Source: Escherichia phage vB_EcoM_G2494. Taken from it: DNA of 64,000 bases. The stretch is from sequence record MK327935.1, one strand, 5' to 3'. Shown here piece after piece: positions 4,647 through 62,998 of the stretch. Numbering within the stretch: the first letter of the stretch is position 1; each line of letters starts with the position of its first letter. A program made the translations under genes and the position numbers. The notes beneath the pieces were generated by a model that saw nothing but the letters and a program-made list of their open reading frames with translations, had not been told where the DNA came from and searched no databases.

Positions 4647-4771
4647 AATATTTCCTCCATAGAAAGCAATATCATACTACAAGTTAATAACAAATACAAG
4701 TATCCGCGTAGCGGAAGCGAGCACAGCGAGCAATAAAAACACTTCCAGTAATTGATTAATAAATGTTCGAA

Positions 4772-4825
4772 ACAAATTTTTATTATTCTATAAGATAAGT
4801 CTTCGTTTTGATCATAATTTAATCA
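4772..4825. repeat. intergenic dispersed repeat, copy 1
   Basis: acaaattttt-attattcta...cttcgttttgatcataatttaatca; related to 4925-4974 and to reverse complement of 57378-57420. Confidence 0.6.
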
Positions 4826-4924
4826 CACATGTAAAAACTACACAAAAGGATATCGCTTCGCGAACTCCTACGGAGTATAACATTTGTGTTACAATATGTA
4901 GTGATTAATAATTAACCAAAGATA

Positions 4925-4974
4925 CATTTTCTATGTTCTAAAGATCTTTCTTCGTTTTGATCATAATTTAATCA
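4925..4974. repeat. intergenic dispersed repeat, copy 2
   Basis: ttctaaagatctttcttcgttttgatcataatttaatca; about 90 percent identical to reverse complement of 57378-57420. Confidence 0.6.
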
Positions 4975-5027
4975 AACAGTATTAATATCGTGCACATGTA
5001 AACTAAAATTATGTTAATAACATATAC

Positions 5028-5054
5028 AAAAAAAGCCGCCCCGAAGGACGGCTA
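5028..5054 (-). terminator. rho-independent terminator (minus strand)
   Basis: A-run then agccgcc-ccgaagg-acggct hairpin on plus strand, i.e. hairpin plus U-run on minus strand after gene 5062-5499. Confidence 0.55.
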
Positions 5055-5061
5055 ATGTTAA

Positions 5062-5499
5062 TTATTTGTTGATAACGATCTGATTTCGGCGAATGGTAAC
5101 ATTACTCTTAGAGATGATCAGATCATCCGGCACTACGTTAGTTTTGTATGGTTGGAAGCGAACAAGCATCTGATTGCGTTTAGACCCTTCCTTAATCTTG
5201 ATTTCCATCTGGATATTGTTGCCTACGTGAGCAACCGCAATTTCACCTTTATTCTCATAGACCCACTTGCTGGTAACGTCTCCAGCAAAAGCCTTAATAA
5301 CTTGCAATGCTTCGTCGTATGCGGTAGAGCTGTGAACTTTCAGAAGGCCAGCCGTAGCAAGACGGGAGCAGGTGATCGCCGGAGATTGCCAAACATCAAC
5401 ATTAATTTGCTCAATCAGAGTAACACCGCCCTGATCAACTGCTTTGAATGCTTCGAACATTGCCTTTTTCATTGCTACGTGGGTTTTACGGAATTTCAT
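5062..5499 (-). CDS. hypothetical protein (145 aa)
   Basis: ATG with AGAGGTG SD; no recognisable motif. Confidence 0.6.
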   Translation of the reverse strand: MKFRKTHVAMKKAMFEAFKAVDQGGVTLIEQINVDVWQSPAITCSRLATAGLLKVHSSTAYDEALQVIKAFAGDVTSKWVYENKGEIAVAHVGNNIQMEIKIKEGSKRNQMLVRFQPYKTNVVPDDLIISKSNVTIRRNQIVINK

Positions 5500-5821: not shown

Positions 5822-6018
5822 CACTTCGCCCCATTGACGATTAACAGGATAGTGATCAGCACCGGAAACTGGATCATGATAGTGCCAATAAACCGGATAA
5901 ACGCATTTTCTGACTTCCACACATGACATGCGACTAGCTGATATACCATTGTTGCCACCAAAGCCAGAAAATACATCTCGATTGGTGTTTCTTTGATCAA
6001 TCGTACAATCTCATTCAT
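5821..6018 (-). CDS. small membrane protein (65 aa)
   Basis: GAGGTG SD 4 nt upstream of ATG; two hydrophobic segments. Confidence 0.45.
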   Translation of the reverse strand: MNEIVRLIKETPIEMYFLALVATMVYQLVACHVWKSENAFIRFIGTIMIQFPVLITILLIVNGAK

Positions 6019-6183
6019 ACTTCACCTCATACATTCATAAACACAACAACGAATAGGACAGTAACAGTTATCAACGCCATTTTCAACCCCACATTCATAA
6101 TATTTTCTTCGCCTCACTATGGACAGTAGCATGTCGATGTGTGCCATTATAGGCATCTAAATCGCTCTGTCAAGCACAAAAAC

Positions 6184-6208
6184 AAAAAAGCCACCCCGAA
6201 GGATGGCT
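6184..6208 (-). terminator. rho-independent terminator (minus strand) after hoc
   Basis: A-run plus agccacc-ccgaagg-atggct hairpin on plus strand. Confidence 0.5.
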
Positions 6209-6219
6209 GATATATTTCA

Positions 6220-7434
6220 TTAAGCAGGATGCATTTCACGAATGCGTAGAACTCGCTCTAACGTCTCTCGGTCCAGTTTATGTAACTCTTTGGAATGATA
6301 CATGAAACCATTGCGAGATTCCATGCAAGTGCAATCACTATATTTTTCTTCCGCTGCCGCGATTGTCTCCAGATCTTTGGCGTACTTGCTTGTTGAATAA
6401 ACTTCTCGATCACGCCACTCTAACCCAGCCTCATTGAATTTAACAATCTCGTCAAATACCCACCATCCAATGTAGATAAATGAAGTTTTGCGCCACGGGA
6501 TCGGGTGTACGTAACGAAACATTTTAACAACTTCCATCGAACATTTTCGGCTTGTACTTGCTGCAACTTCTACTGTTTCATCTTCGATCTGTTGATATAG
6601 TTTAGCAACACACCAGAATTTGGCTGTGTCATCGTAAGTAGCACTCTCTTTGAACAGATGACCGTCTGGAGTGATAGAAAATCCTTCCAGTGCTTCGCCG
6701 ACCTCACTACCGATCAGAGTCGGTGACATTTGCCCTTCGCGCTGCAAATACCAGTTATATTTGATCGTCAAATTAGGCATACCGCTAGAATCGCCTACAA
6801 TGTTCTCTGACACAACATAATTAAGTAAGATCTCATTACCTAGTGCCACGGTCTTTGATTCCACCACATCCTGATCTAAGTTCATTGTTGCCAGCATTAT
6901 TTTAGTCGATGCGCTAGCGGCTGAATCTTCCGACTCACCCCACACTTTTACAGTATACACGCCGTTTTTATCTGCTGTAAATTCTTGGATTGTAATATCT
7001 TTTTTTGTGTCTATAACGTCTTCGCCCTTACTCCAACTATAATGTAGTTCATAGTTGTCTGCTGGAGTCTTCCCACCAGAAAATTTTACTGTTGCATGTA
7101 ATTCTACGTCTGTTTGTGATGATACGTAGAAATGCTGCGGTTCGGTGATATTTACGATTAATTCAGCTTCTTCCATGAGAAAAACTTCAGATTCTACTGA
7201 TTCCATCGTATCGGTATCCTGTACCGTTACTTTATAGATACCCGCATTTTCACTTGTTGCGTCTGCTACAGATAGCGTAGCTGTGCTATTTTCATGTGGT
7301 TGGTCGTCTTTTGTCCATGTATATGTCAAATTGCTGGGTAATGGTTCGTCACCCGATACAGTCGCCGTTAAGGTGAAACCATCGCCAGCAAGAAAACATC
7401 TTTTGTCAGATTTAATTGATACTGTGAAAGCCAT
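6220..7434 (-). CDS. hoc: highly immunogenic outer capsid protein Hoc (Ig-like domains plus capsid-binding C-terminus)
   Basis: 404 aa; C-terminal YVHPIPWRKTSFIYIGWWVFDEIVK ... ESRNGF matches the T4 Hoc capsid-binding module. Confidence 0.8.
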   Translation of the reverse strand: MAFTVSIKSDKRCFLAGDGFTLTATVSGDEPLPSNLTYTWTKDDQPHENSTATLSVADATSENAGIYKVTVQDTDTMESVESEVFLMEEAELIVNITEPQHFYVSSQTDVELHATVKFSGGKTPADNYELHYSWSKGEDVIDTKKDITIQEFTADKNGVYTVKVWGESEDSAASASTKIMLATMNLDQDVVESKTVALGNEILLNYVVSENIVGDSSGMPNLTIKYNWYLQREGQMSPTLIGSEVGEALEGFSITPDGHLFKESATYDDTAKFWCVAKLYQQIEDETVEVAASTSRKCSMEVVKMFRYVHPIPWRKTSFIYIGWWVFDEIVKFNEAGLEWRDREVYSTSKYAKDLETIAAAEEKYSDCTCMESRNGFMYHSKELHKLDRETLERVLRIREMHPA

Positions 7435-7603
7435 ATAAAGCCACTCCCATAGAAAATCCGAATTTAATTAATTGAAATAGTTGATTGCCATCAACCAGAT
7501 AACCATTGCGAGATTCCAATACATGAGTATTAGAATAGTGATGCAACGAGGCCGAAATAGTATCGATCTCGTCTGGGTATTTGTTCTGTTTGATGTAATA
7601 CAT
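7412..7603 (-). CDS. small ORF with Hoc C-terminus-like motif (possible gene remnant)
   Basis: KYPDEID ... ESRNGY resembles T4 Hoc C-terminal DYPEVDVQESRNGY; overlaps hoc start by 23 nt. Confidence 0.3.
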   Translation of the reverse strand: MYYIKQNKYPDEIDTISASLHHYSNTHVLESRNGYLVDGNQLFQLIKFGFSMGVALYGFHSIN

Positions 7604-10341: not shown

Positions 10342-10518
10342 TTACATTAACAGCATTGTTTGCTCTACGAGTTGTTCTTGTTCTTCGCCGTTCGCATCTT
10401 CACTAATCGAACGTTCTGTTACTAGCTGTAAGCAGTAGCCAGTGTGAACAACGCCGTTTTCTGTCTGGACGGCTAACGCATCCTCGACAGGTTGTTTACA
10501 ACAAATACAGATTTTCAT
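10342..10518 (-). CDS. small Cys-rich protein (58 aa), uvsY.-2 position
   Basis: ATG with GGAGG SD; CICCK ... C motif; translated by hand. Confidence 0.4.
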   Translation of the reverse strand: MKICICCKQPVEDALAVQTENGVVHTGYCLQLVTERSISEDANGEEQEQLVEQTMLLM

Positions 10519-10539
10519 AAAAATTCCTCCTGCATGTAT

Positions 10540-10947
10540 TTAGCGTCCAGATTCCAGCATACGCAATTCTATAGCATTCTTGATCGCAAATCCACGAGAT
10601 TTAACGATATCAAGTGCGCGACCAGCAAAATCCATTACCATCTGGTAATATGCAATTTTCGTATCAAGCGGTAAGATCTCGTCGTCTGCTGCCATGACAA
10701 CTTTCAATTCTGATTTCTCATATTCAGCGCGACACCAGTCATCACTACGGTTAGTGTAAAAGTCAAGACGATTTTTCATAGCCTTTTTCTTTTTAGCCTC
10801 AAGAGCAATCGTCTCTCTTTTCGCCTCGCTGTAAATCCTTAACCACTTTGAGTATACTACCGGATTATTCAGCGCCTCCCATTGCAACTTAGTCGCATCG
10901 ATCTTCATGTCAGCTTCTAATTGTTCTTTCAAATCGTTTAGGTCCAT
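10540..10947 (-). CDS. uvsY: UvsY recombination mediator protein
   Basis: 135 aa; similarity to T4 UvsY (KSRGFAIK C-terminal motif). Confidence 0.9.
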   Translation of the reverse strand: MDLNDLKEQLEADMKIDATKLQWEALNNPVVYSKWLRIYSEAKRETIALEAKKKKAMKNRLDFYTNRSDDWCRAEYEKSELKVVMAADDEILPLDTKIAYYQMVMDFAGRALDIVKSRGFAIKNAIELRMLESGR

Positions 10948-10994
10948 AATATCCCCTTATTCACACTAAGACCTATATCATATCACACACAAAA

Positions 10995-11381
10995 TCACTT
11001 TGCAAGTCTTATGCGTAGTTGTTCAAGATCATCTGGGTTATCTATTACTGAAAAGTAGATTGATACTATGATTGAGTTATCGTCGTACTGCGGAGTTACT
11101 TCTACTGTCAGGTTTCGGACCCGTGGTTCATAGTTTCGGATCGCCTCATTGATGTTTTTTGATAAGGTGTCCACTGTCAGTGGGTTCATGTTCTCAAACA
11201 GTGATTTATTGAGATCGCATCCAAACAGTGGATCAAATGGACGAGATCCCTTGCGAGTAGTCACGATCAGTAGAATAGAATCCTTAACCGCTTTAATCCC
11301 TATGTTCTTTTTAACGTCGTTATTCCACGATCTGGATATATTGAGATCCAAATCAGTATACATCTGATTAATAGTTGCCAT
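10995..11381 (-). CDS. 25: baseplate wedge subunit gp25
   Basis: TTRKGSRPFDP..FGCDL, FSVIDNPDD match T4 gp25; ATG at 11381 with GAGG SD (ORF-track start is TTG). Confidence 0.9.
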   Translation of the reverse strand: MATINQMYTDLDLNISRSWNNDVKKNIGIKAVKDSILLIVTTRKGSRPFDPLFGCDLNKSLFENMNPLTVDTLSKNINEAIRNYEPRVRNLTVEVTPQYDDNSIIVSIYFSVIDNPDDLEQLRIRLAK

Positions 11382-52369: not shown

Positions 52370-52377
52370 TATAAATA
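52370..52377 (+). promoter_or_regulatory. T4-type late promoter TATAAATA for gene 34
   Basis: tataaata about 30 nt upstream of gp34 ATG. Confidence 0.65.
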
Positions 52378-55400: not shown

Positions 55401-56146
55401 GTGGAGTCGTCGAGCATTACTCCTTTGCTATGGAACATGACGGCGATGCGTTAGCCTATAGAGACTTTATTGCAGGTCGTAACCTGTATGCGAAACAAGG
55501 CGGTTTATACATTGTTGACCAGTCTAATCCGGCAATGACTCGTTCCCCAGATGGTATGCTGAATATCGGTCACGGTGGAAGTGTTAACATCAAGGCAGGT
55601 CATCAAACGTTAACTACAGAGATCGCCGGACAGAAATATCAGATCGTCCACGCAGGAAACGCAGACGAAGTTCTTAACCGTCAGTTTGTTAAGAATGCTG
55701 GCGATACAATGGTCGGTAAGCTGACTATGGATAATGCGCCTATTGTTTCTGTTAAGCATGAAGCTAGCGCGGCAACCGCTCCGGCAATCGGTAACATCGG
55801 TTTCTGGAACATGCGAGTAACTACCCAAAACATCAAAGAAACCTATCCAGAGAAGAAAAACGGCACATTGATGCAATGGGGTACTGATGAAAACGGCCTT
55901 ACCCAAATCTGGTCACCTGATGGTACTCATAAACATTATATCCGTTCCGGTACTGGTGGTCAATGGACCGCATGGGGTGAAATTTACACCAAACAGAATA
56001 AGCCTACCGCTCAGGAAATCGGGGCAGTAGTTGCAGAAGGTGGTTTAATGAACTCTATGACGGTTCGTGATTGGATCAAAGTTGGTAATGTTAAAATCAT
56101 CGCCAATAATCTGACTCGTACCGTAGACTTTATCTGGGAAGACTAA
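52406..56146 (+). CDS. 34: long tail fibre proximal subunit gp34
   Basis: 1246 aa; repeated motifs GIAEIATQ ... ITPKKL as in T4 gp34; C-terminal GNVKIIANN. Confidence 0.93.
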   Translation: MADFSQHFKATFGFDAGNEKVVNVALADKNVNTDAVNVEFFNYHNGITQYDTTRGYDQYGTTIYQNRPYYAKEDIAKPAGDFDPTKWQALRTDPRWDYVAATSGDTPLKSGDYIAADCQFANLTFSMPTNPAEGDTITVKDIGGKCGVNELSFLAAGHEFYHNGNVYNRKWYCTTPYAMNYFIFVRNRWHVYQTGTEPRGVYAQPAIDAIQMQNGDQVFRRSSLGNIVLMLPKFANNGDMIQTTDLDGLTATNHVTVKVHEGAQEQSIGTFGVKEIVGKRSGHGVFIFDKPENLWRLWDGDQSVRLNPIISDTRLSPNSYVAVFGDRDVTLTLPTNVEPGDRIQVSMQYMHGNQTCRIITSEEDTKILMQKNMVQFPKRSEYPFNGTDTWSGVSELSFNAANDYVPYLEFSYSEGDDGKKYWLVAHAHPIVERVDPTRKDRVGVIALATQDETNKNHEDNPSDEVAVTPKVLANKTANETRRGIARIATQAETHQDTGSSFLDDVIVTPKKLNDCVATEARRGVMEIATQHETNEGLDDTRAITPKKLEERRASEDLAGIAEIVQVGGSASARRGEAGTGIYNINDHAKIVTPQNINEVKATETSRGVGYLATDAEVQGATESTPQDALLITTRTLTKRTATESRTGIAEIATQEETNLGQSDNHIITPKKLHNRRATETLHGLAEIATQSEFDAGRDDARISTPLKIKTFFENAQRLKVDPTQGLNLTGDLWQGIMISGLDATEDTKGVAKVATTQLTDVGQDDTTIITPKKLQGKKATEGKEGIIRVGTQAETVAGTLANVAISPKNFKYVVQTEDTWKATEARRGFLKVATQENCFVGDNLQGSTQELGNYQHDGIAVTPKGLNYALANFLPKMATAQNSLKLGNVEAAKWARRDIDQIIESNYTFNKNVNVKGDLECLKSGSFETLSVTKNSTDDLSNGHLVLGERGVDGHTGITLHGTTASEGMENSWSIIVGGTGTAQVVDSDAIAFGKISDGGVVEHYSFAMEHDGDALAYRDFIAGRNLYAKQGGLYIVDQSNPAMTRSPDGMLNIGHGGSVNIKAGHQTLTTEIAGQKYQIVHAGNADEVLNRQFVKNAGDTMVGKLTMDNAPIVSVKHEASAATAPAIGNIGFWNMRVTTQNIKETYPEKKNGTLMQWGTDENGLTQIWSPDGTHKHYIRSGTGGQWTAWGEIYTKQNKPTAQEIGAVVAEGGLMNSMTVRDWIKVGNVKIIANNLTRTVDFIWED

Positions 56147-56179
56147 TTAAAGGGGGCGAAAGCCCCCTATGGGGTTATT

Positions 56180-57319
56180 ATGACACAAGAGATAGAATTA
56201 CGCAACACTGGAATTAAGTTTGCGCATTTCGACGAAGACTCCGCGACATTTACAAGCATTTCAGAAAACAACTCTGTGATGTATAAGCTGGAAGTGCGCG
56301 GATCTAATGCGGATTCTACCAAACCAGCAAGAATTAGATTTAATGGAGTGGAGATCGTTGGCGCTGGCTATGAAAATGGCCTAAATTTTAAAGTTCTTAC
56401 TCCAACTGGACAACTACACGAAGAAAAGGTATTCTATGGTCGCGGTGCTGTTTTGGCGATGCGTGATTATCTTTCTTTGCTGAAAGGTGATTATATCATT
56501 GCGATGGCAACGCATGGAGAATTGTTTGCAGATCCGATAAGTGATGTTGTATTTTCTAAGATGGGATCTGTATCATTCCCGAATCACATTTTGCTACAGC
56601 AAATGCCTCGTGTATCCTATGCAGCAATTTATTCTACTAAAATGGGTAAAATTGTGTGCGAAGGGATGCAAGCAACGCACGGAGAAGGTCAAGATTCGTC
56701 TATACAAATTGAGAAAGTTTATGATACTATAGACGATCTTGCAATAACAGGAACACCACAACGATTTTTAGATTATCCGGTTGAGTATGTTAGCGAAGAT
56801 GCCGAACATTTCGAGCTAATACAATGGCCTCATGATGAGATCAGCGCACCACTTGAATATTTTAACATAAAGGCAGGTGACAAACTATCAATATCCTTTG
56901 AATTGTTCCGTGATAGTGCCGCAGCCGCAGCCAACGTAACAGCGCGTTTCTATCACAACTACTTCACCGATGGACAATATCAAACTGGTGTTCGATACAA
57001 TGCCAGCAAAAAAGACCAATGGGAAAAGTTTGAAGCCGTCTATACCGTACCGGAAGGAGTTGATAGTGTAGTAACTGGTTGTATCAGATATCCAACCAAC
57101 TCCAATGAAGGTATTGTTAAAATTAGAAACATACTAATAACGCCGATCAGTGGAGTCGTCAAAACTACTGGTCCTACTTCATTTGGTGTTAATGGTGTTA
57201 GAACAACTCATATTCAGGATAACGGTGATTTTACTAACCCTGTAATGAGTCTTCTTAAACTGCCTAGAGATAATAAACACATCACATCCAACAACTTTAA
57301 AGAGTTCGATGTTGATTAA
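56180..57319 (+). CDS. 35: long tail fibre hinge protein gp35
   Basis: Synteny and size (379 aa). Confidence 0.8.
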   Translation: MTQEIELRNTGIKFAHFDEDSATFTSISENNSVMYKLEVRGSNADSTKPARIRFNGVEIVGAGYENGLNFKVLTPTGQLHEEKVFYGRGAVLAMRDYLSLLKGDYIIAMATHGELFADPISDVVFSKMGSVSFPNHILLQQMPRVSYAAIYSTKMGKIVCEGMQATHGEGQDSSIQIEKVYDTIDDLAITGTPQRFLDYPVEYVSEDAEHFELIQWPHDEISAPLEYFNIKAGDKLSISFELFRDSAAAAANVTARFYHNYFTDGQYQTGVRYNASKKDQWEKFEAVYTVPEGVDSVVTGCIRYPTNSNEGIVKIRNILITPISGVVKTTGPTSFGVNGVRTTHIQDNGDFTNPVMSLLKLPRDNKHITSNNFKEFDVD

Positions 57320-57330
57320 CATTTTTAACA

Positions 57331-57360
57331 AGCCGATCCATGTGGTCGGCTTTATTTTTA
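57331..57360 (+). terminator. rho-independent terminator after gene 35
   Basis: agccga ... tcggct hairpin followed by TTTATTTTT. Confidence 0.6.
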
Positions 57361-57480: not shown

Positions 57481-57488
57481 TATAAATA
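57481..57488 (+). promoter_or_regulatory. T4-type late promoter TATAAATA for gene 36
   Basis: tataaata 36 nt upstream of gp36 ATG. Confidence 0.65.
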
Positions 57489-57523: not shown

Positions 57524-59014
57524 ATGGCAGATTTGAAATATGGATCTACTGTAGGCGGATCTCCCATTTGGACGCAAGGAAACTTGACGATCCAGCCAGC
57601 GGGGGATCAGCTTTTCTACAAAGGTCATAAAATCTATACCGCTTTTGATAGACCTTCGGCTACCGATTTTGATGCTGTTAGTGCATCCGAAGGTGGCACA
57701 TTTCAAAAGCAAGTTCATTTCGAGGAAGGTTTAAGCGTAGGTAGCGCATCGGCTGGAGAAACCAAAAAGAACGGGATCTTTAAAGGAAAGAGCGATGCTG
57801 CTAACTTTGATGGTGTAAGTTGGGGTCTGCATTCGTGGAAATCCATTGGTTTTGTTAATGCTCGTGATGATGTTATCATGGCTTATATTGACACTACCAC
57901 AGGTGATTTTAAAACTAAAGGGACCATCGAAGGGACAACCATTAAAGACACTGGTCAACGCGTCTATAGTCCTGTTAATAAGCCGACAAACAATGATTTG
58001 GATTTGGTGTCTCGTCGCGGTGATACTCTCACGGGAACGTATAATTTAAACACGGCTACATTTAAACTTGATGTTAATTCGAAAATACTTGCGCGGGATC
58101 GTGGTTTCATTGCTTTCGATTCTAATGCCATTTATTTTGGAAATAGTCTTGATACTTTGGCATTCAGTAGCAAAAACGAGCCGACAATTTCTGTTAATGG
58201 CAAGGCAGGTAGATTCTACCACACCAACAATAAACCGACTAAAGCCGATGTTGGACTAGGTAATGTCACCAATGATGCACAGGTTAAACGTGCTGGTGAT
58301 ATTATGGAAGGCAACTTGCAAGCGCCTAGAATGTTGGCGACAAACGATCCTGCTGGTCCTAATGAATTGGTTCGTTTGAGCTACTTTGAGAGAAAATCAA
58401 TGGTAGCAAATCCAACAATCATTGGAAACGTTGATTGGAACACTCTTATTAATCGCGGTATCTATCGTGTGGAAAATGCTGGATCAGGTACTAATAAACC
58501 GTCTGATAGCTATTATAACGGCGTTTTGATGGTATATCGCCCAGAAGATGCGGTCGGTACTCGTCGAATTGTTCAGGTATACTATCCTGAATCTATTGAT
58601 CATCCGATGTGCTGGCGTTCTTGTTCTAATGAATCATGGACTGCATGGAACTATGTAGATCACCGTAAATTGGCTGATATTCGCTATGTTAACGTCACTG
58701 GCGATACCATGACAGGACCGTTAACTGTTCCGGCGGCAAATGGCGTTCATACCGCAGAAGCTAACTATAATGGTGATAATTGCTACGCTGGACTTAATAG
58801 CTTAAATGGCACAGCAATGATTCATCGTGTTAGTGATATTAAAGCGCACGAGAAACTAGGCATCACACATGATTCTAAAATTATTTTCGTTAAATCACGC
58901 AACAATACTCAGGACACCGATACATTTGAATTATACCACGAAGGACACAAACCAACTCCTGATGATGTTGGCGCTGTTCCGCTTAATGCGGTAATTGATT
59001 TTGGTACTTTCTAA
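57524..59014 (+). CDS. 36: long tail fibre distal subunit gp36 (extended, 496 aa)
   Basis: N-terminus MADLKYGSTVGGSPIW matches T4 gp36 MADLKVGSTTGGSVIW; much longer than T4 gp36. Confidence 0.8.
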   Translation: MADLKYGSTVGGSPIWTQGNLTIQPAGDQLFYKGHKIYTAFDRPSATDFDAVSASEGGTFQKQVHFEEGLSVGSASAGETKKNGIFKGKSDAANFDGVSWGLHSWKSIGFVNARDDVIMAYIDTTTGDFKTKGTIEGTTIKDTGQRVYSPVNKPTNNDLDLVSRRGDTLTGTYNLNTATFKLDVNSKILARDRGFIAFDSNAIYFGNSLDTLAFSSKNEPTISVNGKAGRFYHTNNKPTKADVGLGNVTNDAQVKRAGDIMEGNLQAPRMLATNDPAGPNELVRLSYFERKSMVANPTIIGNVDWNTLINRGIYRVENAGSGTNKPSDSYYNGVLMVYRPEDAVGTRRIVQVYYPESIDHPMCWRSCSNESWTAWNYVDHRKLADIRYVNVTGDTMTGPLTVPAANGVHTAEANYNGDNCYAGLNSLNGTAMIHRVSDIKAHEKLGITHDSKIIFVKSRNNTQDTDTFELYHEGHKPTPDDVGAVPLNAVIDFGTF

Positions 59015-59016
59015 TT

Positions 59017-59040
59017 CTAGCGGGGATTATCCCCGCTTTT
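59017..59040 (+). terminator. hairpin terminator-like element after gene 36
   Basis: agcgggg-attat-ccccgct followed by TTTT. Confidence 0.5.
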
Positions 59041-59081
59041 CTAAATAATATTATTCTAACAACCGTTAAGGATTTTATAAA

Positions 59082-61862
59082 ATGGCAGATTTACAGAGAA
59101 TCCAATTTAAAAGAACAAGTACGGCAGGTCGCAAGCCGGATGCGAATATTCTAACTCCGGGTGAACTTGCTATTAACCTAGCGGATCGAGAACTATATAC
59201 AAAAGATGACAGCAATAATGTAATTACTTTGGGACACTTTCGCGGTGAGTTGCCATCTGATGCAAATTTAGATAATTATGGACCTACTGGTAAATTTACT
59301 GGCGTTTGGTCTAAATCAACTTCAACAAATGCGCAGCCAGCAAATAAATTCCCAGAAGAGAATGCTGTAGGTGTATTAGAAGTATTTGTGGCTGGTCAAT
59401 TTGCTGGCACTCAGCGTTATACTGTTCGGTCTGGTAACGTTTATATCCGTTCTTTGTCTGCGAAATGGAATGGCGTAGATGGTCCATGGGGTCCGTGGCG
59501 CAATATTCAAACTGGCACACGTCCACTATCAACTACACTAGACTTGAATACTTTAGGTGATGCTTCTCATTTTGGGTTATGGCGAAATAGTTCAAGTTCC
59601 ATTGCATCATTTTCTCGAAATTACCCAGAAGAAGGTGGTCTCGCGCAAGGTCTTTTAGAAATTTATGAAGGTGGTAACTATTCTCGCACGCAACGTTATA
59701 CTACCCGAATGGGTGTTGTATATGTTCGTTGTCTTGCTGGTGCATGGGATCCAGAAGCTCCGAATTGGGGACCGTGGCAACAAGTAGGTATGGTTACTCC
59801 CAACACATTCTATGACGGGGATCTTAATAATTTTCGTTCTCCTGGCTTATATAATATTTTAGGCACTGATGCCGTTATTAACCGTCCAGTTGCAGAAGGT
59901 GTTCCGGTTGAGATGACCGGATTGCTTGAGGTTAAACAGCGTGCTTCCGGTGGCGCTATTTTCCAACGTTTCACTACCGCAGGAACGGGATCTACTACCC
60001 GTGGTCGTGTTTTTGAACGTGCAATGACAAATAATATCTGGGGAAATTGGCATGAAGTATATACATCTTATTCTCTGCCAATTACTTTGGGTATGGGTGG
60101 TATTAAAACTCAATTAGCGGAGCTAGATTGGCAAACATTTGATTTTGTTCCTGGTAGTATGTTTAGCGTTCCTTTGAACAAAATAAAGAACATGCCAGCA
60201 AATATGGATTGGGGTGCGATTGACGGAAACTTGGTTATGTTTTCTGTCGGTCCTAGCGAACACACTAGCACAGGGCGTACTGTTCAGGTTTGGCGTGGTA
60301 CTGTATCCCAGACAAACTACCGTTATTTTGTCGTTCGTGTGTTCGGTAATTCTGGAAATAGAACTTGTACAGTTCGCCGTGTTGTTCTTGAAGACGGATC
60401 ACATACTTGGACTGCTAAACAAGATTTTAATGGTGCTGTCAACTTTGGTGGTTCGACAACTTTTAAGTCCACTACAACTTTTAACACAGAAGTTAAATTC
60501 CGTTCATCCAATGCATTTAAAATGTATGGCGGTAATTTTGGCACAATTTTCCGTAATGATGGTGAAAGTCTTTATATTCTTTCCACCGACGAAAATGATC
60601 AAGATGGAAACTTTAATACAAATAGACCTTTCCGCTATCAATTAAAAACTGGCGATGTTACTTTGGGTGGCACTAGCGGTGCTAACGCTTTAGTATTAAA
60701 AGGCGGTTCTCTTGCTGCTACCTTTAGCGGTGATGTTAATTTAAGTAAAGGTACGCTGACGTTTGAAGCGGGTGGTAAGCAATCACGCGATTATTTCCGG
60801 TTTAATCATTGGGGTGATAGCAATAACGCTCGTGATAACATTATTCAGTTAGAAGATAGTAAAGGCGCTCATTTTTCCACTGAACGTACTTTAGCGACTG
60901 GTGCAATTAAAACTAAATTCTTTGGTGAAGTTGAATCAACTGGTCGATTGACTATTAAACGTCCGGGTGGTGCTATTGTATTATCGACTACAGCCAGCAA
61001 CGCTTTGCATATTCGCGGTGACGTAGACGGGAATGGTAACTGGTATATTGGTAAAGGTGGTGCTGATAATTCGCTAGCATTTTATAGCTATGCTACTCAG
61101 GCGGCAGTACATATAACAAACAATGGTGAGATTGCGTTAAACCCGCAAAATACCTTAATGGTTAACGTTAACCGCGATCGTATGTATATCAATGGTGCAA
61201 GTTGGGTTGCCAGACAACCAGGTGATTGGGGCAACCAATGGCGAGTAGAAGCTCCATTATTCGTTGATCATGGTTATGTTGGTCAAGATAGTTATTATCC
61301 TATTCTTAAAGCAAGAAGCGTTATAACCAATCAAGGATATAGCACCGCTGTTGACTTTGGTATGCGTCGTATTCCATCACAGTGGGGGCAAGCAATCATT
61401 CGTGTCGGATCCACGGAGGCTTCTCCTGATGCTGGACACCCACAAGCTGTGTTTGAATTCCATCATGATGGGTTCTTTTATACACCAGGAAATGGTAGCT
61501 TTAGCGATGTGTATATTCGTTCTGACTCCCGTCTTAAGATTAATAAAGAAGAGTTAGAAAACGGAGCACTTGAAAAAGTATGCCGTCTGAAAGTTTATAC
61601 TTACGATAAAGTTAAGTCTATTAAAGATCGTAGTGTGATTAAACGTGAAGCTGGTATTATTGCTCAGGATCTTGAAAAAGAATTGCCGGAAGCTGTATCT
61701 AAAGTTGAAGTTGATGGATCTGATGTTCTGACAATTTCTAACTCGGCAGTGAATGCTCTTTTAATTAAGGCTATTCAGGAAATGAGTGAAGAAATTAAAG
61801 AATTGAAAACTCCTTTCTTTACTAAAATTGCTCGCAAAATTAGTAAATATTTTAAATTCTAA
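59082..61862 (+). CDS. 37: long tail fibre distal subunit gp37 with C-terminal intramolecular-chaperone-like domain
   Basis: N-terminus IQFKR ... PGELAINLADR ... TKDDSNN matches T4 gp37; C-terminus GIIAQDLEKELPEAV ... NALLIKAIQEMSEEIKELK resembles autoproteolytic chaperone domains of other fibre/spike proteins. Confidence 0.85.
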   Translation: MADLQRIQFKRTSTAGRKPDANILTPGELAINLADRELYTKDDSNNVITLGHFRGELPSDANLDNYGPTGKFTGVWSKSTSTNAQPANKFPEENAVGVLEVFVAGQFAGTQRYTVRSGNVYIRSLSAKWNGVDGPWGPWRNIQTGTRPLSTTLDLNTLGDASHFGLWRNSSSSIASFSRNYPEEGGLAQGLLEIYEGGNYSRTQRYTTRMGVVYVRCLAGAWDPEAPNWGPWQQVGMVTPNTFYDGDLNNFRSPGLYNILGTDAVINRPVAEGVPVEMTGLLEVKQRASGGAIFQRFTTAGTGSTTRGRVFERAMTNNIWGNWHEVYTSYSLPITLGMGGIKTQLAELDWQTFDFVPGSMFSVPLNKIKNMPANMDWGAIDGNLVMFSVGPSEHTSTGRTVQVWRGTVSQTNYRYFVVRVFGNSGNRTCTVRRVVLEDGSHTWTAKQDFNGAVNFGGSTTFKSTTTFNTEVKFRSSNAFKMYGGNFGTIFRNDGESLYILSTDENDQDGNFNTNRPFRYQLKTGDVTLGGTSGANALVLKGGSLAATFSGDVNLSKGTLTFEAGGKQSRDYFRFNHWGDSNNARDNIIQLEDSKGAHFSTERTLATGAIKTKFFGEVESTGRLTIKRPGGAIVLSTTASNALHIRGDVDGNGNWYIGKGGADNSLAFYSYATQAAVHITNNGEIALNPQNTLMVNVNRDRMYINGASWVARQPGDWGNQWRVEAPLFVDHGYVGQDSYYPILKARSVITNQGYSTAVDFGMRRIPSQWGQAIIRVGSTEASPDAGHPQAVFEFHHDGFFYTPGNGSFSDVYIRSDSRLKINKEELENGALEKVCRLKVYTYDKVKSIKDRSVIKREAGIIAQDLEKELPEAVSKVEVDGSDVLTISNSAVNALLIKAIQEMSEEIKELKTPFFTKIARKISKYFKF

Positions 61863-61898
61863 CAACAAGGGGGCGTTGCCCCCTTTGGAGTATAAATT

Positions 61899-62699
61899 AT
61901 GGCAGTAGTTGGTGTTCCTGGTTGGATTGGAAGTTCAGCCGCAAATGAAACAGGACAACGATGGATGAGTCAAGCGGCTGGTCAATTAAGATTGGGTGTT
62001 CCTTGCTGGATGAGTCAATTTGCAGGTCGCTCGCGAGAAATTATTCATACTGTAGGAGCAAACCACAATTTTAATGGTCAGTGGTTCCGTGATAGATGCT
62101 TTGAAGCTGGCGGTGCACCTATTGTATTCAATATTGTTGGTGATATCGTTTCTTATTCTAAAGATGTACCGCTTTTCTTTATGTATGGTGACACTCCTAA
62201 CGAATACGTTGTCCTTAATATTCATGGTGGTGTCCATATGTGGGGTCGAGGTGGTAATGGTGGATACACTCACTCAGGTGGAGATGGTAACGGTACACAA
62301 GGCGGTCATGTTATTCAAAATGATATCGGTGGACGGCTTCGTATTTGGAACTACGGTGTTATAGCTGCTGGCGGTGGTGGCGGTGGTGGTATTGCATATC
62401 GTCCACACTCAGGGGCAAACTGGCAAGATATCGGTGGCGGTGGCGGTCGACCTTTCGGTGGTGCTGGCGGTGGCGGTTATTCCGGTGGTGCTGCTTCTTA
62501 TGAAGGTCCGGGTGGTGGTTACAACTATGGTAACGCACACTCCGGCGCGGGTGGTAATGCTGGCGCTGCTGGTCAGAATGCATGGTCTGATGGCGGTAAA
62601 GTTCTTAAAGTTGGTGTTGGTGGTGCTTCTGGTCATGCCGTGTTTGGATCTTCTCCAACTTGGGGCGCTGTAGGGACAATTTATGGACCTTACATTTAA
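61899..62699 (+). CDS. 38: gp38 receptor-recognising adhesin (T2-type, glycine-rich motifs)
   Basis: N-terminal [14 protein letters not shown] ... and poly-Gly segments as recalled for T2-type gp38. Confidence 0.8.
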
Positions 62700-62758
62700 C
62701 CGTTAAAAAAGAATTAAGGAAAAATCCCAGGGAAGGGAACTACTAAGGAGAAACGGCT

Positions 62759-62998
62759 ATGGTCTATAATATCGTCATTGGTGCTTTGTCTAATTTCGGA
62801 ATGAAATTATTGTCAAAGTTAATTAGTGAAAAGATGCTCACTAAAATTTTCTTCTATTGCGCTCGTCGTCTTGCGGCTTATACCAATACGCCAATTGATG
62901 ATCGTTTTGTGGAAGAACTTTATAAGGAGTTTAATAAAGATCAGTCAGAAGATAGTAACGAGCAAGATAAACCTAGTGATAGTCAACTACCTAAATAA
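62759..62998 (+). CDS. hypothetical protein with hydrophobic N-terminus (79 aa)
   Basis: AAGGAG SD; between gene 38 and holin. Confidence 0.5.
   Translation: MVYNIVIGALSNFGMKLLSKLISEKMLTKIFFYCARRLAAYTNTPIDDRFVEELYKEFNKDQSEDSNEQDKPSDSQLPK

Follow-up and report, generated by a model that had tools for sequence, protein, structure and literature searches.

The window analysed here, a stretch of 64,000 nucleotides from Escherichia phage vB_EcoM_G2494 (MK327935.1), includes three ORFs which lie exactly where the first-pass annotation had placed them, on the + strand like all the other features described below: g36 (57524-59014), encoding the long tail fibre's distal connector (496 aa); g37 (59082-61862), encoding the 926-aa distal fibre subunit; and g38 (61899-62699), whose 266-aa product is predicted to be a T2/S16-type, Ox2-like tail-fibre adhesin. 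The gene order is 34-35-36-37-38-orf79-t, with gp34 (1246 aa) and then gp35 (379 aa) encoded upstream of the module, a 79-aa ORF and the holin gene t downstream of g38, and 36 nt between the g37 stop and the g38 start. The position of g36 between g35 and g37 is the same in RB49, G5211 and Sf21. NCBIfam gave no matches for gp36, gp37, gp38 or orf79; PHROG 16472 matched gp36 over its full length, PHROG 1425 ('hinge connector') matched it with E=6e-52, and gp37 was assigned to PHROG 1699 (E=7e-189). The Pfam family Phage_T4_gp36 (PF03903) scored 23.6 bits against gp36, under the cut-off of 26, and in hundreds of phages tblastn detected annotated gp36 proteins with 31-50% identity across the N-terminal 110-180 aa.

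Directly after gp35 there is a terminator-like GC-rich hairpin with a T run (57330-57352; terminator scan, RNA fold -12.6 kcal/mol, z=-3.0). An exact motif search located TATAAATA, the T4-type late promoter consensus, which presumably has that role here, at 57481-57488, 36 nt 5' of the g36 start codon; a second copy is found at 52370, upstream of g34. Both gaps within the module contain GC-rich hairpins: one between g36 and g37 (59019-59037; RNA fold -14.3 kcal/mol, z=-3.8), and GGGGGCGTTGCCCCC between g37 and g38 (61868-61884; -17.2 kcal/mol, z=-3.4). The scan for sigma-70 promoters showed no enrichment (31 seen versus 30.4 expected from shuffles). The genes g36, g37 and g38 are probably cotranscribed from the late promoter at 57481.

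The window is that of a Krischvirus (RB49-like E. coli phage), and within this backbone the segment that runs from about codon 44 of g37 through g38 (59210-62705) is identified, by nucleotide comparison and junction alignments, as a Tequatrovirus-type cassette; neither point was remarked on in the first-pass annotation. The type Krischvirus, RB49, has in common with the window gp34, gp35, gp36, the holin and orf79, as well as g37 up to about codon 43. Its nucleotides are 93.7% and 99.0% identical to the left and right flanks of the cassette, whereas the interior aligns to RB49 in two patches only, at ~72%, and reaches 86% identity to Sf21 and 89% to Ox2. At the amino-acid level, gp37 is ~77-82% identical to the gp37 of the Tequatrovirus Sf21, and 82% to the C-terminus of Ox2 gp37. 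The gp37 of RB49 (980 aa) likewise has DVYIR|SD and an S74 domain at its C-terminus, but is otherwise only ~43% identical, and a knob profile (see below) detects no repeats in it; RB49 gp38 (258 aa) is ~44-48% identical to the gp38 of the window.

In RB49, g38 lies ~58 kb from g37, and it is likewise displaced in most RB49 relatives. The closest relative of our phage, Krischvirus G5211 (98.2% identity to the module, genome already public), has one gp38 only and an empty displaced-g38 slot; the corresponding locus of our phage lies outside the window, and its lack of a displaced g38 is read only from this 98%-identical genome. A search of the window for a second, RB49-type gp38 returned none at E<=10, and this, together with the single gp38 and the empty slot of G5211, led us to reject the idea of a phage with two adhesins. 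Krischviruses with adjacent g37 and g38 were described in 2025 (G5211, KMB43, LF73P4, FL04, FL15, FL20; Npj Viruses, PMC12032242); they resemble the window in their backbone and junctions, in a gp36 of 496 aa and in having orf79 and the holin gene as neighbours. What is added here is modest: the exact boundaries of the cassette, and the complementary empty displaced-g38 slot in G5211.

The contrast between flanks and interior in the comparison with RB49 argues for a replacement in one lineage. It is possible, although doubtful, that adjacency of g37 and g38 is instead the ancestral state of Krischvirus, from which the RB49 lineage departed, the window having retained the layout with no import. 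Adjacency is canonical in T-even phages (PMC3157838), the 12 nt following the gp38 stop are common with the 3' end of RB49 g37 and may be an old intergenic stretch that the RB49 g37 frame extends into, and the cassette is no recent copy of any sequenced Tequatrovirus (dS 0.2-0.6). Retention alone, however, fits poorly with flanks 94-99% identical to RB49 around an interior which is unrelated or ~72% identical, with an interior whose closest counterparts are Tequatrovirus genes (86-89% nucleotide identity), and with a displaced g38 which is retained in ~44 phage records and missing in ~14.

The product of g38 had been proposed to be a T2-type adhesin and not the T4 assembly chaperone, and the matches obtained bear this out: Pfam PF05268 (E=1.2e-65, 221.8 bits versus a cut-off of 25) and Gp38_N PF21721 (E=1.5e-19), and, among solved adhesins, 9V85 (E=3e-62) and the adhesin of the Salmonella phage S16 (6F45_D, E=1e-43), aligned over the whole length. 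The scores of these matches, like those of the gp37 domain described below, far exceed what chance would give. On these homologies gp38 is classed as a T2/S16-type adhesin, with location at the fibre tip and receptor binding as predicted properties. The N-terminal attachment domain (aa 1-42; 61899-62024), which the Gp38_N match covers, includes Trp9, Trp22 and Trp37, which align with the three tryptophans of S16; the role of these three prongs comes from the S16 structure, in which the adhesin was solved bound to gp37 (PMC6851490). The putative receptor-binding part (aa 116-265; 62244-62693) consists of glycine-rich motifs with hypervariable loops between them: there are seven Gly runs, residues 115-250 are 38% Gly, and an alignment of gp38 relatives shows invariant Gly motifs separated by variable segments. 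A tblastn search with this glycine-rich specificity domain by itself gave no matches, probably an effect of the low-complexity filter. The dN/dS of gp38 is 0.09-0.10, indicating a functional, conserved gene, and g38 lies immediately 3' of a g37 whose product ends in a cleavable-type (S74) chaperone.

The architecture of S16 gp38 (monomer, three Trp prongs, beta-helix, polyglycine sandwich) is as in the window, and the trimeric S16 gp37 (PDB 6F45) carries a C-terminal 113-aa chaperone of the same auto-cleaving type; the gp38 match is nevertheless distant, the loops differ, and no sequence similarity is detected in the part of the gp37 tip that precedes the cleavage site. The receptor of S16 is reportedly Salmonella OmpC (Marti et al. 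2013).

The adhesin of Ox2, a classical OmpA-specific T-even-type phage (X05675), is far more similar: it also has 266 aa and is 95.1% identical to gp38 of the window, including nearly all the loops, and dozens of Tequatrovirus gp38 proteins reach 96-98%. Between Ox2 and the window, gp38 shows 13 substitutions, of which N174K, G193R and N209D fall in the loop region, as well as a different pair of final residues; save for these three loop-region substitutions, the loops are those of Ox2 and Sf21. The Ox2 module resides in a Tequatrovirus genome, and that of the window in a Krischvirus. The adhesins of the Krischviruses FL04 and KMB43 have a Tsx-type specificity domain (72% identity overall), with loops wholly unlike those of the window, which are of the Ox2/OmpA type. 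The receptor of Ox2 is OmpA (PMC12032242) and, because the gp38 loops differ so little from the Ox2 loops, the primary receptor of our phage is most likely OmpA. The Ox2-like character of the adhesin, on which the first-pass annotation was likewise silent, provides a concrete, testable receptor prediction, useful for the choice of phages for cocktails or for engineering.

The OmpA assignment carries uncertainty because single loop substitutions can switch the receptor, and there are three differences from Ox2: Q206L alone switches a gp38 from OmpF to OmpW (bioRxiv 10.64898/2026.04.02.716166), and few changes take T6-type adhesins from Tsx to OmpA (PMC3157838). N174K, G193R and N209D fall in the loop-bearing region and might likewise have shifted the specificity to another receptor (e.g. 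Tsx, OmpC, OmpF or LPS). We consider this unlikely, given that the remaining loops are identical to those of Ox2 and that dozens of Tequatrovirus adhesins are so similar, that the loops of the Tsx-type Krischvirus adhesins are entirely different, and that close gp38 relatives have a common receptor (PMC12032242).

The C-terminal part of gp37 had been described as a segment resembling intramolecular chaperone/autoproteolysis domains. Alignment to S74-type chaperone domains agrees with this description: Peptidase_S74 (PF13884) matches residues 814-872 (E=1.3e-11, 45 bits, cut-off 22), a Ser-x4-Lys motif is found at the DVYIR|SD junction, and the predicted fragment has 113 aa, as in S16. Pfam and alignment place the S74 intramolecular chaperone at aa 814-926 (61521-61859), with Ser814 and Lys819 as putative catalytic residues. 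Residues 808-911 align to S16 gp37 (6F45_A), to the 8JOV tail fibre and to the auto-processing domain of MYRF; S814-D-S-R-L-K819 lines up with the S16 sequence SDRRIK, and DVYIRSDxRxK is kept in the gp37 of Sf21, Ox2 and RB49. The C-terminal 251 aa of Ox2 gp37 (82% identity) contain an identical DVYIR|SD junction and likewise a chaperone of 113 aa. Endosialidase studies established that the S74 catalytic dyad is a Ser and a Lys (Schulz et al. 2010, as cited in PMC7917993); our literature search for the numbers of the endosialidase catalytic residues found nothing. The motif DVYIR itself (aa 809-813; 61506-61520) is, by its position, the predicted mature C-terminus and gp38 docking face. Further upstream, gp37 contains a Gp34_trimer-like domain (aa 449-545; 60426-60716; PF21446 E=1.5e-12), which also aligns to T4 gp34 (5NXH/4UXE, E=6e-9).

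In S16, gp37 is cleaved at DLNVS^SDRRIKK with the release of 113 aa, and in T2-like Yersinia phages DVYIR^SD is by alignment the site equivalent to the S16 cleavage (PMC7917993). In T2 and T6, gp37 is cleaved and the gp38 cap is then added (PMC3157838, PMC9569957). The domain and the motif are present in the window, and cleavage of its gp37 is expected by analogy with S16 and T2. In the textbook view of T2, T6 and S16, gp37 processing precedes gp38 docking, which supports the same order here. Immediately before DVYIR, the tip of gp37 finds no counterpart by sequence in that of S16, the alignment beginning at residue 808, and the docking geometry of gp38 is consequently only assumed. It is highly improbable that the S74 domain is degenerate and leaves gp37 at full length, as neither Ser814 nor Lys819 nor the motif around them is disrupted and all are conserved in Sf21, Ox2 and RB49, the domain scores at twice its Pfam cut-off (45 versus 22 bits), and the dN/dS of gp37 is ~0.2. 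Some database records name gp38 homologues 'distal long tail fiber assembly catalyst', but a T4-style gp38 chaperone outside the virion, with the gp37 tip binding the receptor, is scarcely credible and was rejected, since at E<=0.01 Pfam matches gp38 to two adhesin families only, gp38 aligns end to end with solved adhesins, including that of S16 solved in complex with gp37, and gp37 has a chaperone domain of its own.

We thus read the module, with a probability of about 85%, as the distal half of the long tail fibre, formed by a self-cleaving gp37 and a gp38 adhesin cap, OmpA-binding most likely. A gp36 trimer would bridge the gp35 hinge and gp37; gp37 would trimerise aided by its own C-terminal S74 chaperone, which would then cut itself off between Arg813 and Ser814 via the Ser814/Lys819 dyad, releasing 113 aa and leaving DVYIR as the fibre tip; one gp38 would dock on this tip via Trp9, Trp22 and Trp37 and present the polyglycine-sandwich loops to the cell. 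The host range of the phage would be set by this distal module. The window resembles T4 in its gene order, in the late-gene context and, probably, in the N-terminal part of gp36; in T4, however, the tip of gp37 itself serves as the adhesin, and gp38 acts as a chaperone in folding and does not form part of the virion (PMC3157838, PMC6851490). A self-cleaving gp37 with a gp38 adhesin cap is the predominant, well-described T-even design, and the module adds no new biology, both this design and its occurrence in Krischvirus being already published.

The gp36 protein had also been reported as enlarged, and with 496 aa it truly is so, because the gp36 of the Tequatrovirus Sf21 has 216 aa and that of T-even phages, T4 included, ~220 aa (Trojet 2011, PMC3157838). 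RB49 gp36 likewise has 496 aa (90.5% identity), and by this comparison the length is the usual one in the RB49 genus and no peculiarity of this phage. The extra length corresponds to additional shaft modules plus one knob of the pyocin-fibre type. The full-length monomer model of gp36 was poor (pLDDT 45, weak Foldseek matches), and the inserted domain (aa 294-383; 58403-58672) was therefore modelled alone with AlphaFold (pLDDT 86.6). The best PDB match of this model in Foldseek was the R1 pyocin fibre (6CL5_A; TM 0.77, rmsd 2.2 A, probability 1.00, 24% identity), suggesting a beta-sandwich knob of the R1/R2 pyocin type (PDB 6CL5, 6CL6); the Foldseek E-value is only 5e-3, which makes for good, though not overwhelming, support.

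Three tandem knob-type repeats were located in gp37 by profile search and alignment (aa 69-147, 146-237 and 236-331; 59286-60074). A profile built from relatives of the gp36 knob only matched gp37 with a whole-sequence E=1e-9 (single target; best repeat E=3.6e-6), and invariant G, G, Q, W and W columns are common to the gp36 knob and the gp37 repeats. The knobs might act as accessory glycan-binding sites, engaging O-antigen/LPS before gp38 reaches OmpA, a proposal to which we give little weight; if true, the enlarged gp36 would be more than a passive spacer and would have a part in host range. O antigens have been reported as alternative receptors of RB49-like phages, the activity being credited to gp38 and not to knobs.

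The internal knob repeats were not picked up by blastp self-comparison, and the profile was needed to detect them. Among the fibre proteins, gp36 contains a single knob, gp37 three, and gp34 a further one at its C-terminus.

The three open reading frames of the distal long-tail-fibre module lie on the + strand exactly where the first-pass annotation had placed them: g36 at 57524-59014 (496 aa), g37 at 59082-61862 (926 aa) and g38 at 61899-62699 (266 aa), with gp34 (1246 aa) and gp35 (379 aa) upstream and a 79-aa ORF and a T-type holin downstream. Family scans assigned every protein of the module to the long tail fibre. Over its full length the 5.4-kb module shared 98.2% identity with Escherichia phage vB_EcoM_G5211, which is RB49-like (Krischvirus); identity with KMB43, LF73P4 and FL04, also Krischviruses, was 91-95%. 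The annotation's observation was confirmed and its interpretation supported; the finding is an ordinary one: T-even phages commonly follow this published design, in which a self-cleaving gp37 chaperone is succeeded by a monomeric gp38 adhesin; adjacent g37-g38 genes were already published for some Krischviruses, and a genome almost identical to this one is publicly available. The details of use are the prediction of an Ox2-type (OmpA) receptor, the predicted cut after Arg813 and the boundaries of a Tequatrovirus-like cassette. In gp35 (56180-57319), Pfam linked residues 66-133 only weakly with the ILEI domain (E=5.6e-4; 20.8 bits, below the threshold of 27), probably by chance or through a distant beta-fold resemblance.

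The chaperone-like domain proposed for the gp37 C-terminus was recovered as a Peptidase_S74 match (residues 814-872; 45 bits, with the threshold at 22), and the final 146 residues aligned to S16 gp37 (6F45_A), another tail fibre (8JOV) and the MYRF auto-processing domain. The junction reads DVYIR-S814-D-S-R-L-K819, and the fragment starting at Ser814 is 113 aa long; S16 gp37 is cleaved at DLNVS^SDRRIKK, likewise releasing 113 aa, and this site was equated with DVYIR^SD of T2-like phages, DVYIR being proposed as the gp38 docking face (PMC7917993). The motif is conserved in gp37 of Sf21, Ox2 and RB49. By analogy with S16, cleavage is predicted after Arg813, and the suggested processing before gp38 attachment would match the published T2/T6/S16 scheme, gp37 of T2 and T6 being cleaved and then capped by gp38 (Trojet 2011, PMC3157838; Golomidova 2022, PMC9569957). 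Residues 449-545 were similar to the T4 gp34 trimerisation domain; the tip immediately before DVYIR is without a solved relative, the 6F45_A alignment beginning only at residue 808.

The reading of gp38 as a T2-type adhesin with glycine-rich motifs held: the protein matched PF05268 (E=1.2e-65), Gp38_N (E=1.5e-19) and two solved adhesins (9V85 and S16 6F45_D), has seven glycine runs, and carries in Trp9, Trp22 and Trp37 the counterparts of the three S16 prongs. Many Tequatrovirus adhesins were 96-98% identical to it, and Ox2 gp38 was 95.1% identical, the 13 differences including N174K, G193R and N209D in the loop-bearing region and A257V, Y265R and I266V near the C-terminus. In the Tsx-dependent Krischviruses FL04 and KMB43, the first ~100 residues are common with this gp38, whereas the loops are unrelated. 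Because Ox2 binds OmpA (PMC12032242) and the protein is Ox2-like, OmpA is the predicted receptor; we keep the probability at about 0.7, since porin choice can shift by single loop substitutions (bioRxiv 10.64898/2026.04.02.716166). The dN/dS of 0.09-0.10 indicates purifying selection on gp38. The G5211 record (10498-11297 of its locus) splits gp38 into two overlapping CDS of 114 nt and 738 nt, and tblastn aligns it in two pieces, while ours is one intact ORF; this suggests a frameshift or a sequencing error there.

The annotation did not mention that the module is mosaic. Nucleotide identity to RB49 was 93.7% up to 59209 and 99.0% from 62706 on; between them RB49 aligned in only two patches (~72%), and identity was 86% to Tequatrovirus Sf21 (59244-62689) and 89% to Ox2. 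The cassette (59210-62705) has its left junction within g37 codons ~43-55 and its right junction within the last g38 codons; RB49 homology restarts 12 nt before the RB49 g37 end (nine coding bases plus the stop codon), and these 12 nt sit just past the gp38 stop. Since synonymous divergence of its genes from sequenced Tequatroviruses is 0.2-0.6, the cassette was not copied recently from any of them. Unlike this phage, RB49 has no g38 after g37 and encodes a 258-aa gp38 at a distance of ~58 kb, surrounded by small hypothetical genes, as previously reported (Trojet 2011, PMC3157838; bioRxiv 10.64898/2026.04.02.716166). This displaced g38 is kept in ~44 phage records and absent from roughly 14, including G5211, KMB43, LF73P4, FL04, FL15 and FL20; in G5211 the slot is empty, RB49p080 and RB49p078 abutting. 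FL37 and FL38 retain the displaced gene and FL04, FL15 and FL20 carry g38 near the holin, in agreement with a 2025 description (PMC12032242). The exchange may have gone in either direction.

FL04 (4715-5497 of its locus) and KMB43 (4716-5498) share the cassette junctions and have another, Tsx-type gp38 specificity domain (72% identical); within this sub-lineage the distal half of g38 has therefore undergone a further exchange. Directly after the gp38 stop comes TTAAAAAAGAATTAAGG (62700-62716), which corresponds to the final codons and stop codon of an RB49-type g37, CTTAAAAAGAATTAAGG; it is either a remnant of a g37 3' end that has been replaced or intergenic sequence that is shared.

The gp36 described as enlarged is indeed above the T-even norm (216 aa in Sf21; ~220 aa in T-even phages, Trojet 2011, PMC3157838). 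RB49 gp36 is also 496 aa (90.5% identical) and full-length matches were present in 72 phage records, so that this size is standard for the genus. T-even resemblance was confined to the first 110-180 residues (31-50% identity), the Pfam score (23.6 bits) falling just under the cut-off of 26. The fibre junction motif NKPT...GD(T/I)(L/M)(T/E)G occurs three times (~residues 152-171, 236-263 and 393-398), with a C-terminal HKPT at residue 475. The whole monomer modelled poorly (pLDDT 45); the compact insert at residues 294-383, modelled in isolation (pLDDT 86.6), superposed on the R1 pyocin fibre knob 6CL5 (TM 0.77, rmsd 2.2 A). Given the T-even-like N-terminal part, the motif copies and the knob insert, gp36 is a T4-like connector extended by ordinary fibre modules. 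When a profile made solely from gp36-knob relatives was applied, gp37 showed three tandem repeats (69-147, 146-237 and 236-331; whole-sequence E=1e-9, gp37 being the single target) and RB49 gp37 none; gp34 showed one at its C-terminus (residues 1126-1203, 55781-56014, E=5e-6), which makes it probable that a knob-type domain lies beside the hinge on the proximal half-fibre too. Synonymous divergence of gp36 from RB49 (6001-7491 of the RB49 locus) was 0.50, against 0.075 for gp35 and 0.045 for the holin, and amino-acid changes were concentrated at residues 178-228 and 409-480; gp36 therefore looks mosaic itself.

The T4-type late promoter consensus TATAAATA occurs upstream of g34 (52370) and of g36 (57481), and a terminator-like hairpin lies 3' of gp35. 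Stable GC-rich hairpins (z between -2.8 and -3.8) follow gp34 (56151-56168), gp36 (59019-59037) and gp37 (61868-61884), right ahead of the start codon of the following gene. They are much alike (GGGGGC...GCCCCC and GCGGGG...CCCCGC) and may serve in mRNA stabilisation or as recombination hotspots, in the manner of the promoter-stem-loop motifs reported for T4-like phages. The 79-aa ORF between g38 and the holin (62759-62998, + strand) matches PHROG 402 (E=5e-20), a family of unknown function. In RB49 this small ORF fills the place of g38 (Trojet 2011, PMC3157838), and here it is kept downstream of the adjacent g38; it has a hydrophobic N-terminal half and an acidic C-terminal tail.
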